A DNA stretch of 10,147 nt from Campylobacterales bacterium (GTDB taxonomy: Bacteria > Campylobacterota > Campylobacteria > Campylobacterales > JAABSR01): positions 1 through 10,147 of the forward strand of contig JAABSR010000060.1 of NCBI GenBank assembly GCA_011390245.1, in the 5' to 3' direction. Below are positions 653 to 4,844 of this stretch, piece after piece. Made by a program: the position numbers and the translations under genes. Within the stretch, counting starts at the first letter, position 1; each line of letters begins with the position of its first letter. The notes under the pieces were generated by a model. That model made no database searches. It was not told the origin of the DNA and saw only the letters and a list, made by a program, of their open reading frames with translations.

Positions 653-1537
653 CTAATCATTTATATTATTATAATTTTTTAACATTTTTTGAGCCAATAG
701 CTCTTTTATTATTATTTCTGTTAGGTCACTTTGCAGTTGAAATTCATGTCGTATATCCATCACATACGCTTTTATCTTCATCTCCAAATATGGTTTTTGC
801 TCATTCATTTTGTTTGAAAAAAGAACAACTATAGGCTTATTGAGATATATATATTTTGAAACTTGTGCTGATTCTATAGCAATATTTCGAGCTTTTTCTA
901 TAGAGACATCTATAGGAAGTATAATTTTTGCAACCACTTGACAACTTAACTCTCCTGAGTTTGAATTGGAGAGATTGCTATTCATGATCTCCATATTTGG
1001 AATATGAACAATTGTATCATCAGGTGTTACTATTTGAGTGGCACGAAGTCCTACATTGATGACCTCTCCATAGTGTTCTGCTACTTTTATTTTATCCCCC
1101 ACTTTAAAAGGACGCTCAAAAAGGAGCATCATGCCACCAAATATATTTTTTAGCAAATCTTGTGTCGCAAACCCAACTGCAATAGCCACTGAAGCTAAAG
1201 CACCTATGATCATCTCTTTTGGTGGATGATATATCTCTTTGATAACAATAAATATAAATACAATCCAAAGAAATATTCTTATTATAGGGATGAGTCCTTT
1301 TAGTGATATTCGAAGTTGTGAGCTTTTTTCTGCAAAAAAAGTAAGTGCTTTTGTAAAAAAAGATATAAACAAATAAGCAATAATAAAGAAAAATATTGTC
1401 CATAAGATTTTAGTAAAAGATAGAATACTCAGCAAACTTGCTGGATCTACTTTTGATAAATTATTATCTTGTGAGATATCTACACCAAAGAGTGATTGAG
1501 CCAAGATAGGAGCAAAAAGCAAGTATAGAGTTTTCAT
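653..1537 (-). CDS. MscS-family small-conductance mechanosensitive channel
   Basis: N-terminal signal/TM segments plus three TM helices. The conserved MscS beta-domain is ERPFKVGDKIKVAEHYGEVINVGLRATQIVTPDDTIVHIPNMEIMNSN (compare E. coli MscS FRVGD..G.V..IGLRST.IRT.DGT...IPNSEI). ATG at 1535-1537, 10 nt after the stop of the upstream gene. Confidence 0.85.
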   Translation of the reverse strand: MKTLYLLFAPILAQSLFGVDISQDNNLSKVDPASLLSILSFTKILWTIFFFIIAYLFISFFTKALTFFAEKSSQLRISLKGLIPIIRIFLWIVFIFIVIKEIYHPPKEMIIGALASVAIAVGFATQDLLKNIFGGMMLLFERPFKVGDKIKVAEHYGEVINVGLRATQIVTPDDTIVHIPNMEIMNSNLSNSNSGELSCQVVAKIILPIDVSIEKARNIAIESAQVSKYIYLNKPIVVLFSNKMNEQKPYLEMKIKAYVMDIRHEFQLQSDLTEIIIKELLAQKMLKNYNNIND

Positions 1538-1547
1538 ATCATTAGCC

Positions 1548-2741
1548 CTAGTGGATATAGTTTTTAGATGAAAGATAGTTATGTATTTGATTGTAAATGA
1601 TTGGATTGATATTATATTTTTGTTTTGGTTGAATTAGAAGCCCTTTTTCAAGCATTGGCATAAAAGTATTTCTACACTTATGATTTGACTCACTAGTCAC
1701 AAAAGAGTAATCATGTAAAGTCAGCCCATCATGGATGATTAAAGTCTGTAAAACAAAAAGAACCTCTATAGAAAGATTTTCAATAAAAGATTTATCAAGC
1801 TCATCGATCTGATTTAAGTAAATTTTATTATTTTCTATTTTTTTGATAGATCTAACCCAATATAACAAAGCAAGAGATATATTTCCGCTAGAAAGTTTAT
1901 AAAGCTGTTTGAAGAAATGCTCCTCTAGAGATTCTTGCTCTTTTTCATCGCTATCTTCTTGTAAAAATAGAACCTCAAGAGCTGCAGATTTGTTACGCTT
2001 ATGTATAGTCTCTTTTATATCTTCAAGCTTTAGTAGTTCTACATTAACTTCACTTGTAAAGTAATTTGATATAGAGATTGTTTTATCAAGATATTTCCAA
2101 GATTCTGGTGTAAAAGTACCAACCCAAAGAACTTTTTTAGAAGTATAAGATATAAGCTCAAAGAGTAGTTCTATGGCTTCAAAACCACCAACTTTTTTTA
2201 AAAACATGTGCTGCAAGTTTTCTAAAATTATAATTTTACTATTTTTACTATTGTTGAGATAGTTGATAAAATCTTTATTCGTACGCAAATCTTCTGTTTG
2301 AAGCAAAGAGTTGAAATATCTAAAATATTTCTCTTTTGTGTAGATTTTTTTATCTAGCTCTTCTCTTATGATCTCCATTTCTATATGAGTTTTTAGGAAA
2401 ATATTAAGCATTGATGTAACCCCTGCGCCTTTTTGGGCAACTATTGCACAGCTCACAAACCTATCTTTTTTCCAGTTCTCATAACTGTTTTTTAGTTTTT
2501 CAAGCTCTTTTTTTCTGTTGATGAAAAAATCTGTTTCACATGGGGTGAGTTCATAAAGTTTTTTATACTCATCTGGAAGTTGCTCAAAAGAGTTAGTGAC
2601 ATCTTGCATGAATTCGGAAATTTCAAAAGATATAGGTGTTGTTTTATCAACAACACCTAAAAATATTTTAAGTCTATTAAGTCTTTTTTTAAGGGATTTA
2701 AAAAGAGTATCATTTTTTGAATTCTCTCGTTTTTCAAGCAC
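1548..2741 (-). CDS. 397-aa encapsulin-operon protein with a P-loop NTPase-like (Arch_ATPase/AAA_16-like) fold signature but degenerate Walker A and B motifs. Predicted pseudo-ATPase
   Basis: FINRKKELEKLKNSYENWKKDRFVSCAIVAQKGAGVTSMLNIFL fits the F.gRe.EL..L ... hhhhG..G.GKTsLl pattern of Arch_ATPase/ORC-like NTPases. The Walker A is AQKGAGVTS (Lys replaced by Val). The putative Walker B is KIIILENLQ (hhhhDE changed to ILEN). GTG start at 2741, 17 nt after the encapsulin stop, with AAGG 10 nt upstream. No stop in 397 codons. Confidence 0.55.
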   Translation of the reverse strand: MLEKRENSKNDTLFKSLKKRLNRLKIFLGVVDKTTPISFEISEFMQDVTNSFEQLPDEYKKLYELTPCETDFFINRKKELEKLKNSYENWKKDRFVSCAIVAQKGAGVTSMLNIFLKTHIEMEIIREELDKKIYTKEKYFRYFNSLLQTEDLRTNKDFINYLNNSKNSKIIILENLQHMFLKKVGGFEAIELLFELISYTSKKVLWVGTFTPESWKYLDKTISISNYFTSEVNVELLKLEDIKETIHKRNKSAALEVLFLQEDSDEKEQESLEEHFFKQLYKLSSGNISLALLYWVRSIKKIENNKIYLNQIDELDKSFIENLSIEVLFVLQTLIIHDGLTLHDYSFVTSESNHKCRNTFMPMLEKGLLIQPKQKYNINPIIYNQIHNYLSSKNYIH

Positions 2742-2758: not shown

Positions 2759-3562
2759 TTACTTAAAGTTAAAAATAATAGCTGCTTCAGGACCTAAGAT
2801 TCTCAAAGCACATGTTTGAATCAAAAACAACTCTACGCTATCTTTGTTTATCTTTTCAAACCCAATTGAGACATCCAATCCACTACAAAACTCAAAATCT
2901 CCACCTCTTTGTGAAATAATCATCGCACTGTTGTCACCAATATCTTCACTAGCAACTATTTGATTTTCACCTAATATATCATCTAGCTTTGTTTTTAAGC
3001 TTATACCATCAAAAAACTCAGTGTAAAGCTTTGTCAATGTTGCACTTGAGACCACAAGTTTAAAGCCACCATCAACAAACTCATTGCGAAAAACTCCCAA
3101 GGATTTTGCAACGCTACTAAGAATATCTTTAGTAGATTTTACTTCCATACTCACGACATCTGGATGGTTTATGATTCCTGTGAAACTTGCTTCTTTAAGT
3201 CCTTGAAGTATCATGTTATTTTCTATAGTGGCAAACTCATTTGCAGCATTTGCAAACTCTTCATCATTAAAGTCTTCTATTCCTCTTTTGATGTGCTCAA
3301 TTGCTTCATTGCTGATTGTGAAAGTTTTTTTAATCTCTACCATTTTGATAGGCTCTCTTGTAGAGATTGTAAGACCTTTATCACTACTTACTTTTTTTAT
3401 TCTTTTTGTGAAAACTGCATCAGTTTCAAAGCTATAGTGATCTTTGAAATCAATAAGTGTTCTTAAGCTGAGCCTTTTTGACAAAAACTCAGACATTGTT
3501 TCATCTATCACATTCCAAACCGCACTTGAAAAAGGTGCACTTGTTCTATTGAGTATTTCCAT
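2759..3562 (-). CDS. Family 1 encapsulin shell protein (Linocin M18-like, HK97 fold)
   Basis: 267 aa, alignable along its full length to the T. maritima encapsulin from memory. Start MEILNRTSAPFS versus MEFLKRSFAPLT. C-terminal block SQRGGDFEFCSGLDVSIGFEKINKDSVELFLIQTCALRILGPEAAIIFNFK versus [50 protein letters not shown]. RBS aagga 8 nt upstream of the ATG. Confidence 0.9.
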   Translation of the reverse strand: MEILNRTSAPFSSAVWNVIDETMSEFLSKRLSLRTLIDFKDHYSFETDAVFTKRIKKVSSDKGLTISTREPIKMVEIKKTFTISNEAIEHIKRGIEDFNDEEFANAANEFATIENNMILQGLKEASFTGIINHPDVVSMEVKSTKDILSSVAKSLGVFRNEFVDGGFKLVVSSATLTKLYTEFFDGISLKTKLDDILGENQIVASEDIGDNSAMIISQRGGDFEFCSGLDVSIGFEKINKDSVELFLIQTCALRILGPEAAIIFNFK

Positions 3563-3573
3563 ATTTGTATCCT

Positions 3574-3939
3574 TTATTTCCTATTTTTTCCAATATTAAG
3601 AGTATTTGATGAACTAGAATCAGTAGACTCTTCTTCTCCCATCATCGCTTCTTCATTTCCTACGATATCTCCATCTTTAAACAAAAACTCTCTAAGCATC
3701 TTATCCCAAGTGGGAGAGTTTTTTCTAAGCCACTCTATCCCCATACAAGCATGCTCTATCTCTTCATCACGGTTATGTTCCATGATAGCCTTTGCTTCAG
3801 GGTCGCTTGCACACTCTGCTCTTTGATTGTACCAATCAATCGCTTCAAGCTCTTCCATGGTGCTTTGTATGATTCTATGGTAATCTTTTGCAAAATCTGA
3901 TAACTCTTTTGGATCTTCATGAAACCCTTCATGTGCCAT
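3574..3939 (-). CDS. Encapsulated ferritin-like cargo protein (EncFtn) with C-terminal encapsulin targeting peptide
   Basis: 121 aa. The ferritin-like ExxH di-iron motifs are MEELEAIDWY and HNRDEEIEHA. An acidic/Ser-rich linker is followed by the tail SSSSNTLNIGKNRK, which resembles Family-1 targeting peptides (..L.IGSLK). The gene sits 11 nt upstream of the shell gene. RBS aaggag. Confidence 0.85.
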   Translation of the reverse strand: MAHEGFHEDPKELSDFAKDYHRIIQSTMEELEAIDWYNQRAECASDPEAKAIMEHNRDEEIEHACMGIEWLRKNSPTWDKMLREFLFKDGDIVGNEEAMMGEEESTDSSSSNTLNIGKNRK

Positions 3940-4085: not shown

Positions 4086-4376
4086 ATGGGAATGAAAGAA
4101 GCATATGAAAAAAAACTGCAAGCTCAGCTAGATGAGTGGGGTGCACAAATAGATACTCTAAAAGCAAAAGCAGATAAAGCTGAAGCAGATGTGCAACTTG
4201 AATATTATAAAGAGATAGAAGAGCTAAGAGCAATGCAAAATGAAGCAAACAAAAAAATTGTAGAGCTCAAAAATGCTAGCGATGATGCATGGGAAGATCT
4301 AAAAGCAGGCATGGATAGTGCTTGGGATTCTCTAAGTATTGCAGTAAAATCAGCAACTTCACGATTTAGTTCATAA
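4086..4376 (+). CDS. Small cytoplasmic coiled-coil protein (uncharacterized conserved family), paralog 1
   Basis: Strong RBS aaaggag 7 nt upstream. 96 aa, predicted all-helical, with heptad-rich EKKLQAQLDEWGAQIDTLKAKADKAEA. The C-terminal motif DDAWEDLKAGMDSAWDSLSIAV is shared with the next gene. Confidence 0.6.
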   Translation: MGMKEAYEKKLQAQLDEWGAQIDTLKAKADKAEADVQLEYYKEIEELRAMQNEANKKIVELKNASDDAWEDLKAGMDSAWDSLSIAVKSATSRFSS

Positions 4377-4382
4377 AGAGGG

Positions 4383-4844
4383 ATGCTGATGAAACTACAT
4401 ATATCTTCAGCTGTATTAGCAGCACTATTGGGAATGAGTACAATGGCTTTTGCAGATGGGCACAAGGGTTCAGCCTCTGCTCAAGATGTAAAAAAAGAGA
4501 CTAAAGAGCTACTTCAAACTATCAATTCATACGGTAGTGATAAAAAAGATGAAGTTCTAGAAAAATCTAAAAAAACTCTTGAAAAATTAGATTCTCAAAT
4601 TGATCAATTAGAATCCAAAGTTGATAATAATTGGGATGAAATGAGTAAAGAGGCAAGAAAAGAAGCTAGAGAAAATCTTAGAGATCTTAGAAAACAAAGA
4701 AATGAAGTCGCACAGTGGTATGGAAGCATGAAAAGTAGTTCTGCTGATGCTTGGGAACATGTAAAAAAAGGTTTTACAGACTCTTATAATGCACTTCAAA
4801 ATGCTTGGGAAAAAGCACAAAAAGAATTTGACGATAAGAAATAA
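4383..4844 (+). CDS. Secreted/periplasmic coiled-coil protein, paralog 2 of the upstream gene
   Basis: Signal peptide MLMKLHISSAVLAALLGMSTMAFA|DG. RBS agaggga. The shared motifs NNWDEMSKEARKEARENLRDLRKQRNE and ADAWEHVKKGFTDSYNALQNAWEKA align to paralog 1. It starts 6 nt after the paralog 1 stop. Confidence 0.65.
   Translation: MLMKLHISSAVLAALLGMSTMAFADGHKGSASAQDVKKETKELLQTINSYGSDKKDEVLEKSKKTLEKLDSQIDQLESKVDNNWDEMSKEARKEARENLRDLRKQRNEVAQWYGSMKSSSADAWEHVKKGFTDSYNALQNAWEKAQKEFDDKK

Follow-up and report, generated by a model that had tools for sequence, protein, structure and literature searches.

Obligate pairing of a degenerate AAA+-like protein family with an MscS-like channel in several bacterial phyla

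Bacterial MscS-family channels have, to our knowledge and in the literature that was searched, been described as self-contained tension sensors that are regulated through fused domains. Other ion channels, as with the RCK rings of KtrA/TrkA and the cNMP-binding domains in bCNG MscS-like channels, have their gating tuned without hydrolysis by a soluble module that has a nucleotide-binding fold and is either encoded together with the channel or fused to it. Here, a 10,147-nucleotide stretch of DNA from a Campylobacterales bacterium (contig JAABSR010000060.1), referred to throughout as the window, was analysed. A gene on its reverse strand at positions 1548–2741 (GTG start, stop codon included in the span) encodes a 397-aa degenerate AAA+-like protein, designated PL, which is a short-form member of a large family that has no name. 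The gene lies immediately upstream of, and co-oriented with, a gene for a 294-aa MscS-like channel protein (653–1537, reverse strand), with 10 nt between them, which is the arrangement that defines the PL-MscS pair. Together, the two genes most likely represent an undescribed two-gene channel module.

Upstream of the pair in the window are genes for a Family-1 encapsulin shell protein (2759–3562, reverse strand; PF04454, NF041155) and an EncFtn cargo protein (3574–3939, reverse strand; PF22277, TIGR04535), both of which are context and fall outside the conserved module. These identifications, and that of the MscS-family protein (PF00924), agree with a preliminary description of the locus, as do the distances between genes when examined at the sequence level. 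The encapsulin stop codon (TAA, 2761–2759) is followed by 17 nt (aaaataaggcagagatt, with AAGG within) and then by the PL GTG codon at 2741, with which the ATG starts of the two closest relatives align exactly. The PL stop codon (TAG) occupies 1550–1548 and, 10 nt further on, the MscS-like gene begins with ATG at 1537. Neither the 17-nt nor the 10-nt gap contains a terminator-like site, and the co-transcription that had been proposed is plausible: EncFtn, encapsulin, PL and mscS probably form a single transcript in this organism. A terminator-like hairpin at 2633–2659, within the PL coding region, was considered as an attenuator and rejected as incidental, because it is formed by the codons of VVDKTTP and is not common to the relatives.

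The fold of PL was settled by structure prediction as opposed to comparison of its profile with PDB sequences, in which Cdc6 was matched with an E-value of only 0.3. In the AF2 model of window PL (pLDDT 85.4, pTM 0.82), an AAA+-type alpha/beta nucleotide-binding core with a helical lid (about residues 73–297; 1851–2525, reverse strand) is followed by a C-terminal winged-helix domain (about residues 318–397; 1551–1790, reverse strand), the latter assigned from the order of helices and strands in the model and from Foldseek; a long-form relative, when modelled, has the same fold. Residues H337, L340, R357 and N379 of the winged helix are invariant, and D338 and G339 nearly so (motif LxHDGL). Foldseek aligned approximately 400 columns across the AAA+, lid and winged-helix domains of Orc1/Cdc6 proteins, and NLR, CED-4 and Avs4 were among the structural matches of the family. 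Pfam matches of family members were to AAA_22, AAA_16, nSTAND1 and ATPase_2, the best E-values among the 30 members scanned (set A1) being 1.2e-07 for AAA_22 and 2.8e-08 for AAA_16; the best AAA_22 score among the seven long-form relatives with scores shown was 26.5 bits (P0079), below the cutoff of 27 bits. Window PL itself matched no Pfam model at E≤1, PF01637 included, and Pfam, NCBIfam and PADLOC returned no usable match for it. The sole NCBIfam line, to CofG, was dismissed as noise (E 0.014; 14 bits where the cutoff is 209), and in the profile comparison with PDB sequences the N-terminal linker gave a spurious match to a coiled coil of MORC2 (E 0.008). No TM segment was predicted in PL. 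As modelled, then, PL is a soluble, AAA+-derived protein with an Orc1/Cdc6/STAND-like core, a lid and a winged helix.

Sequence identity between PL and the Orc1/Cdc6 AAA+ initiators (7jgr_G, 2qby_A, 1fnn_B) is 10–14%. Unlike these, PL is bacterial, has no replication context, lacks the Walker A lysine and the Walker B DE pair and has a membrane channel gene as its obligate neighbour, and most members of its family add a 600-aa N-terminal helical domain. The ATPase_2 proteins with a DUF234-type winged helix (PF01637, 'Arch_ATPase', the model left unmatched by window PL), of which SSO1545 (2fna) and PAB2304 (2qen) are examples, retain canonical Walker A and B motifs and are not known to accompany MscS genes. 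Inactive AAA+ subunits of the type represented by the Sir3 AAA+-like domain (3te6) and clamp-loader delta' show no specific sequence relationship to PL, and have partners in chromatin and clamp loading whereas that of PL is a membrane channel. The module comprising NBD, helical domain and winged helix is common to PL and the STAND NTPases (NLR/Apaf-1/MalT/Avs), as are weak nSTAND1 and AAA_16 matches in the family, and H337 with D338-G339 may recall the STAND MHD/LHD motif, although the positions differ. PL differs from STAND proteins in having a disabled nucleotide switch, no repeat-type sensor domains and no match in PADLOC.

The segment FINRKKELEKL...CAIVAQKGAGVTSMLNIFL, which corresponds to residues 73–116, includes a P-loop remnant, A102-Q-K104-G-A-G107-V108-T-S110 (2412–2438, reverse strand), in which the canonical Walker A lysine is replaced by V108; the Walker B remnant, where hhhhDE is canonical, is I170-I-I-L-E174-N175 (2217–2234, reverse strand). 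Window PL thus has AQKGAGVTS and IIILEN in place of Walker A GxxxxGK[ST] and Walker B hhhhDE, respectively. Among 227 family proteins the lysine position is occupied by V in 75, I in 43, A in 30, T in 25, L in 16, S and K in 10 each and M in 5, and the Walker B pair is EN in 164, ED in 41 and EG in 8, with DE in none. The degenerate motifs are consequently a trait of the family and not a matter of chance. The preliminary description had placed both remnants correctly, and its call of an ORC/Arch_ATPase/AAA_16-like fold is borne out by AF2, Foldseek and the Pfam matches of the family. Its prediction of a hydrolysis-dead P-loop also agrees with the motifs, the lysine being absent from 217 of the 227 proteins. 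With the lysine kept in the other ten, nucleotide binding may persist in some relatives, and 'pseudo' is perhaps too strong a term family-wide. Elsewhere in the pocket, there is no variation at G105, N175 and G107 (226 of 227 rows, the last being a gap in a fragment), and conservation is 90% or higher at K104, S110 and E174; in the census of 227 proteins, K occupies the third P-loop position in 194. The best-conserved residues of the family thus include the P-loop glycines, the relocated K104, S110 and E174-N175, while the canonical Walker A lysine and the catalytic glutamate are missing, a pattern that indicates a nucleotide pocket that is remodelled, not decayed.

The neighbouring channel gene is a clear member of the MscS family. 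The encoded protein has three hydrophobic/TM segments, and its beta-domain, which lies after the TM helices, the pore helix among them, matches PF00924 with an E-value of 2.4e-21 and a score of 76 bits, well over the cutoff of 20.2; solved PDB structures matched include MscS, YnaI, MscM and MscK. It scores under every NCBIfam equivalog cutoff, and therefore represents a distinct subfamily. This gene had previously been taken as a mere downstream boundary of the PL gene, whereby an invariant neighbour was missed. Loci of 46 PL homologs from Campylobacterota, Bacteroidota, Ignavibacteriota and Desulfobacterota were compared, gathered by means of conserved peptide patterns, such that the sample is biased to well-conserved members. 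In 44 of these loci the next gene, in the same orientation, encodes an MscS ortholog (41–68% identical to the window's protein), and in the remaining two the contig ends. Conversely, when metagenome loci were collected with MscS as the seed, all 73 that had room upstream carried a PL homolog immediately before the channel gene. The ORF-to-ORF gaps are mostly 9–23 nt or overlaps, and no other neighbour of the pair is conserved across lineages. Pairwise identities of PL and MscS proteins are correlated (r=0.83, Mantel p=0.001, 95 pairs), and the MscS partner is unusually conserved between phyla, with a mean identity of 59% that extends to the C-terminal cytoplasmic domain. In 10 Sulfurimonas-type loci the pair follows cobU-cobS-cobC, a stable chromosomal position. 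No PL-MscS fusion was present among 150 listed representatives. PL and mscS are obligately paired, and probably constitute a horizontally mobile module; the pair is widespread in these four phyla.

The family comprises 1,414 cluster representatives (50%-identity clusters, E≤1e-30), and most members, unlike window PL, are approximately 1,000 aa in length and have the added N-terminal helical domain. No separate gene for this domain was found near short-form PL genes: when the long-form N-terminus was turned into an HMM, its only matches were long-form or split genes. Short-form PL may therefore work differently from the long form, or only partially. Every named record sampled is annotated as 'hypothetical', an exact look-up of window PL returned no record, cluster look-ups returned no names, and neither Pfam nor NCBIfam has a model for the family. 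Informative Pfam matches were likewise absent for a 157-aa ORF described below, a 266-aa ORF of Cecembia and a 336-aa ORF of S. denitrificans. Literature searches for MscS/AAA+ pairing, Suden_0109/0110 and encapsulin in Sulfurimonas returned nothing relevant.

The explanation that best accommodates these observations, to which we assign a probability of roughly one half, is that PL has no catalytic activity and serves in the cytoplasm as partner or regulator of an MscS-like channel dedicated to it. PL would be synthesised alongside the channel from a single transcript, on which the two genes are tightly spaced and probably coupled in translation; it would bind the highly conserved cytoplasmic domain of the channel and would act as its regulatory or gating subunit, possibly as a switch that binds a ligand without hydrolysing ATP. 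In this respect PL would functionally resemble the rings that KtrA/TrkA form on K+ channels, or the cNMP domains in bCNG channels, although neither the Rossmann fold of RCK nor the beta-roll of cNMP domains is related to the AAA+ fold of PL. A more specific proposal, which we advance tentatively, is that the family is an unrecognised class of channel subunit, in which an AAA+/Orc1-like protein with dead nucleotide chemistry would attach to the cytoplasmic cage that the MscS-like heptamer forms, giving a two-component, signal-gated channel instead of one that is purely tension-gated. The remodelled pocket, with K104, the invariant G105, G107 and N175, and the largely conserved E174, would then serve as the ligand sensor, and in most lineages the docked protein would bear the 600-aa helical arm.

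The lack of a fusion protein among the listed representatives counts against a channel partner, and so does the possibility that the target of the Orc1/Cdc6-like winged helix is DNA, a long-form relative having a basic C-terminal module. Indeed, PL could feasibly be a transcription factor akin to Orc1/Cdc6 or to the large ATP-binding regulators, one that would bind DNA through its winged helix and autoregulate the PL-mscS operon without contacting the channel, and we consider this unlikely but worthy of attention. The architecture of core, lid and winged helix is like that of DNA-binding Orc1/Cdc6 over the approximately 400 aligned columns, and R357 is invariant in the putative recognition helix; STAND and ORC winged helices, however, often make protein contacts. 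Similarly, while the C-terminal module of a long-form relative has a pI of 9.2, the winged-helix region of window PL is neutral (pI 7.1). A first-gene regulator with a single target in one operon is a common layout, but the short gaps and overlaps maintained across phyla suggest coupled, stoichiometric synthesis of the kind typical for subunits of a complex, and a protein of some 1,000 aa with a 600-aa helical domain appears too big for a one-gene regulator.

It is improbable that PL stabilises this particular channel or acts as a chaperone for its assembly or membrane insertion, being required for building the heptamer and not for gating. The proposal draws on the same pairing evidence as the channel-partner reading, and assembly factors are often AAA+-derived, with the non-catalytic state of PL suggesting a scaffold; against this, other MscS-family channels are not known to need help in assembling, and classical chaperoning by AAA+ proteins requires the ATP hydrolysis that PL has lost. 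Longer odds still attach to a conflict or anti-phage system, in which a STAND-like PL sensor would open the MscS-like effector and thereby abort infection. The nSTAND1 and AAA_16 similarities, the NLR, CED-4 and Avs4 structural matches and the known defence layout of sensor-NTPase with membrane effector are consistent with such a system, but the NTPase switch that STAND sensors need is disabled in PL, and PADLOC (PADLOC-DB 2.0) matched none of PL, the long forms, the Cecembia PL, the MscS partner and the 157-aa ORF. The occurrence of the cassette in distant phyla with differing flanks fits horizontal transfer; conversely, its position beside cobalamin genes is syntenic and stable in the 10 Sulfurimonas-type genomes, the channel is highly conserved where defence genes evolve fast, and nothing to this effect was found in the literature.

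The preliminary description had drawn attention to the adjacent shell gene, and suggested that PL may be an accessory factor of the encapsulin or, more speculatively, a second cargo, its N-terminus bearing a weak resemblance to a targeting peptide. Using tblastn, the window's encapsulin and EncFtn had no matches in the 46 PL homolog loci and were absent from 79 of 80 MscS-seeded loci, with a match in the remaining one. Across the approximately 126 homolog loci examined, encapsulin is upstream of PL only in the window and in three contigs (L047, L048, L051) of a single narrow clade, in which PL is 64–71% identical to that of the window and a 132- or 157-aa ORF intervenes between the shell gene and PL. 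In L050, the nearest relative at 72% identity, a patatin gene precedes PL and the available 1.4 kb of upstream sequence contains no encapsulin gene, and in L049 the upstream gene is DUF2391, to which the 157-aa ORF shows no similarity; approximately 600 bp containing that ORF are present in L047 and L050 and missing from the window. PL and encapsulin accordingly lack conserved linkage. The preliminary description had itself named this outcome as fatal to its proposal, and it is essentially what was observed, the conserved partner being MscS and not encapsulin. The targeting peptide fares no better: residues 1–17 are modelled with pLDDT below 50, the segment is an internal linker in the long form, and the N-termini of the encapsulin-linked relatives diverge (NDTLFKSLKKRL, SNTLLKFVKNSI, ESGFFESTKNII) and contain nothing like the EncFtn tail, which ends TLNIGKNRK in the window and is conserved as TLNIG(K/N)N(K/R)K in relatives. 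A role for PL in encapsulin loading, anchoring or regulation, or as a second cargo, is hence extremely improbable and largely refuted because synteny is not conserved, notwithstanding the probable co-transcription across the 17-nt gap and the encapsulin pair in the three close relatives, and a 397-aa protein from a family with a norm of 1,000 aa is in any case unlike typical cargo. The encapsulin-PL junction is recent, lineage-specific and secondary, with no sign of shared function. For encapsulin biology this is a negative result: the locus does not add to the accessories of the shell, and annotations should not carry the adjacency forward.

With regard to the family itself, a large group of 'hypothetical' proteins is strictly coupled to one subfamily of MscS-like channels in at least four phyla, and offers a clean natural case of an AAA+ fold in which the pocket appears to have been remodelled instead of discarded. 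If the channel-partner reading is true, a separately encoded, dedicated cytoplasmic partner would represent a new regulatory layout for MscS-family channels.

The 397-aa ORF (1548-2741, GTG start; here termed PL, as is its protein family) is the third of four co-directional genes on the minus strand of the window, the others encoding EncFtn (3574-3939; PF22277, TIGR04535), a Family-1 encapsulin (2759-3562; PF04454, NF041155) and an MscS-family channel, the MscS partner (653-1537; PF00924). The encapsulin TAA is separated from the PL GTG by 17 nt, with AAGG upstream of the GTG, and the PL TAG from the mscS ATG by 10 nt, exactly as given in the preliminary description; when aligned, the two closest relatives begin with ATG at the position of this GTG. 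Neither junction contains a terminator-like site. A hairpin with an 11-bp stem, TAGGTGTTGTTGATAAAACAACACCTA, plus a T-rich tract is present at 2633-2659 (both strands), within the PL coding region ~80 nt past the start. Since the VVDKTTP codons that encode it are not common to relatives (IVDKKAP and similar), this hairpin is probably incidental rather than an attenuator. A GC-rich hairpin with a 9-bp stem, GTCGTAGTGACCCACTACGAC, lies at 400-420, between a plus-strand 90-aa ORF (18-290) and the end of mscS (653), and is plausibly a bidirectional terminator closing the minus-strand operon.

Window PL had no matches in Pfam, NCBIfam or PADLOC. Its relatives (n=30, E≤1) gave weak but consistent matches to AAA_22 (27/30), AAA_16 (22/30), nSTAND1 (14/30) and ATPase_2 (12/30). 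The AlphaFold2 model of window PL, for which a 30-sequence alignment served as input, was confident (pLDDT 85.4, pTM 0.82) and poor in residues 1-17 and 27-38 only, while ~400 columns of a long-form relative (~1,000 aa, with an extra N-terminal helical domain) were aligned by Foldseek with Orc1/Cdc6, spanning core, lid and winged helix. Together, these data indicate that the NTPase fold originally assigned to PL is correct.

The motifs quoted in the preliminary description are present as AQKGAGVTS (residues 102-110) and IIILEN (residues 170-175), and their degeneracy proved to be real and conserved in the family. Among 227 family proteins aligned to the family HMM, the canonical Walker A lysine position is occupied by V (75), I (43), A (30), T (25), L (16), S (10), K (10) or M (5), within a P-loop consensus of G-E-K-G-[SC]-G-x-[TS]-[ST] whose third position is lysine in 194 proteins and arginine in 10. 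G107 is found in 226 of the 227 rows, the last having a gap from a fragment, and the Walker B pair includes E-N (164), E-D (41) and E-G (8) but never D-E. Since ten members retain GE[KN]GSGK[TS]T, the ancestral P-loop was probably canonical, with the lysine lost in most of the family. Pocket residues rank among the most conserved of PL in the 30-sequence alignment, G105, G107 and N175 being invariant and K104, S110 and E174 at least 90% conserved; the nucleotide site has been remodelled under selection and is not in decay. The prediction that PL is hydrolysis-dead is well supported, although this need not mean that the pocket binds nothing.

PL has, then, an Orc1/Cdc6-like fold without catalytic residues. 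In structure it comes closest to Orc1/Cdc6 and to archaeal ATPases of the PF01637/DUF234 type. Compared with active AAA+ ATPases, however, it is without the Walker A lysine, its Walker B is not DE, and window PL and the seven long-form relatives with scores shown fall below Pfam cutoffs. The closest functional likeness is to inactive AAA+ scaffolds such as Sir3 and clamp-loader delta'.

A profile search against 1.84 billion cluster representatives returned 3,730 matches at E≤1e-3, 2,852 at E≤1e-10 and 1,414 at E≤1e-30. The best were mostly ~1,000-aa long forms, the C-terminal 400 residues of which correspond to the entire window PL; these carry the same degenerate motifs, also have MscS downstream of their genes, and bear the name 'hypothetical protein' wherever a source record gives them one. 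Most family members are long forms, which are found at homolog loci L025-L046 and at many among L053-L130 (one example being L027 3147-6185). No Pfam/NCBIfam family was found for their N-terminal 600 residues. In an AF2 model of one long form (pLDDT 87.1), residues 1-622 comprise very long helices arranged as a bundle, the length of one being 84 residues, followed by a linker and then the AAA+/lid/winged-helix module; fold searches with this model gave AAA+ matches only, with nothing informative for the bundle. This comparison, and the failure to find a separate gene for the helical domain near short forms, identify window PL as a short form, typical of Campylobacterota.

The genomic context of PL homologs was examined by several approaches. 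Exact-protein look-up covered Suden_0109 of S. denitrificans, a Cecembia lonarensis protein and three proteins from metagenomes with identities down to 30%, all of them divergent homologs; it revealed an MscS (PF00924) gene immediately downstream of each of the five, and encapsulin near none. Pattern searches across GTDB species, each represented by a single genome, yielded 37 PL loci: in Sulfurimonas, Helicobacteraceae and Arcobacter; in Bacteroidales, Rikenellaceae, Prolixibacteraceae, Paludibacter, Lentimicrobiaceae, Sphingobacteriia and Cecembia; and in Ignavibacteriales and Desulfobacteraceae. When the four window proteins were compared by tblastn with all 46 homolog loci, 44 had as their next gene downstream, in the same orientation, a homolog of the window's MscS (41-68% identity), the remaining two stopping at a contig edge; encapsulin and EncFtn gave no matches in the 46. 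At the ORF level MscS is the sole neighbour conserved across lineages, at intergenic distances from PL of mostly 9-23 nt or overlapping. Conversely, in 80 metagenome loci fetched with an alignment of MscS partners, a PL homolog was directly upstream in 73/73 with enough upstream sequence, the other seven having no upstream room, and encapsulin was present in just one (L051). When loci are compared in pairs, the identity of PL correlates with that of MscS (r=0.83, Mantel p=0.001, 95 pairs), with PL evolving faster (mean identity 36% versus 59% for the channel). The PL and MscS genes form an obligate pair, closely spaced and inherited together, which in ten Sulfurimonas-type genomes has a stable position after cobU-cobS-cobC.

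The cobU-cobS-cobC (His_Phos_1) genes are 0.02-1.3 kb upstream of the pair in L001, L010, L011, L013-L018 and L022. A conserved 336-352-aa ORF follows ~0.9 kb downstream in typical Sulfurimonas, its place being taken in the window's subclade (L047, L049, L051) by an AI-2E-family transporter after MscS. A second MscS-family paralog adjoins the pair in several loci (L005 2972-3874, minus strand; L008 5138-5977; L041; and L042/L043/L045, ~1 kb downstream), lying upstream, divergent or downstream by locus. Frameshifts or stops, from assembly errors or pseudogenisation, break PL into two or three ORFs on a small number of MAG contigs (L005 4023-7062, L014 5001-6218, L019 5001-6221, L045 3121-6159).

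It is very probable (about 0.9) that PL has a function linked with the MscS-like channel and not with encapsulin; that PL is a regulatory subunit of the channel has roughly even odds. PL is soluble and the MscS partner has three TM segments. PL would be a stoichiometric cytoplasmic partner bound to the conserved cytoplasmic domain of the channel, regulating its gating or stability, and may sense a ligand in the remodelled pocket; the likeness to cytoplasmic channel regulators (KtrA/TrkA, bCNG domains) is by analogy only. An Orc1-like DNA-binding autoregulator is unlikely, and a role for PL as an assembly factor distinctly more so. A STAND-like sensor with the channel as effector in defence is marginally less credible again, the nSTAND1 matches of relatives notwithstanding, as defence models matched neither PL nor its MscS partner. 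Least of all is PL likely to be an accessory or second cargo of encapsulin, as the preliminary description proposed: by the synteny test suggested there this is refuted, MscS and not encapsulin being conserved beside PL.

The encapsulin junction itself varies among close relatives. Upstream of PL are a patatin gene and a 157-aa membrane ORF in L050 (72% identity), a two-component system and DUF2391 in L049 (64%), and EncFtn-Enc in L047, L048 (70%) and L051 (64%), where a 157-aa or 132-aa ORF separates the shell gene from PL. The 157-aa hydrophobic ORF (L047 2262-2735, L048 350-823, L050 925-1398; without Pfam match) and the 132-133-aa ORF (L051 1205-1603; L049 4376-4777, annotated DUF2391 in L049) are each directly upstream of PL and have no detectable relationship. 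DNA alignment revealed that a ~600-bp segment with the intervening ORF is missing from the window, which has lost it; the 17-nt spacing is therefore a junction that arose recently, in a single lineage. The putative N-terminal targeting peptide of PL is neither conserved among encapsulin-linked relatives nor similar to the EncFtn tail TLNIG(K/N)N(K/R)K; its counterpart in the long form is an internal, low-confidence linker. The conserved EncFtn C-terminal tail, ...S(V/N)TLNIG(K/N)N(K/R)K (window near 3577-3610, L047 1259-1342, L051 300-383), is presumably the encapsulin targeting peptide of the window's clade. Divergent beside the EncFtn-Enc pair, 4086-4376 and 4383-4844 (plus strand) encode two small coiled-coil proteins, one of 96 aa and one of 153 aa whose N-terminus is signal-like; this pair is conserved in L047 and present also in L010 and L014.

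A search of literature available without subscription found no description of a dedicated AAA+-like partner for an MscS channel. The module combines already known kinds of component, an AAA+ fold and an MscS channel. PL belongs to a large, unnamed family that makes up, together with an MscS-like channel, a conserved module of two genes, a pairing that is worth attention because it is strict, widespread and experimentally tractable.
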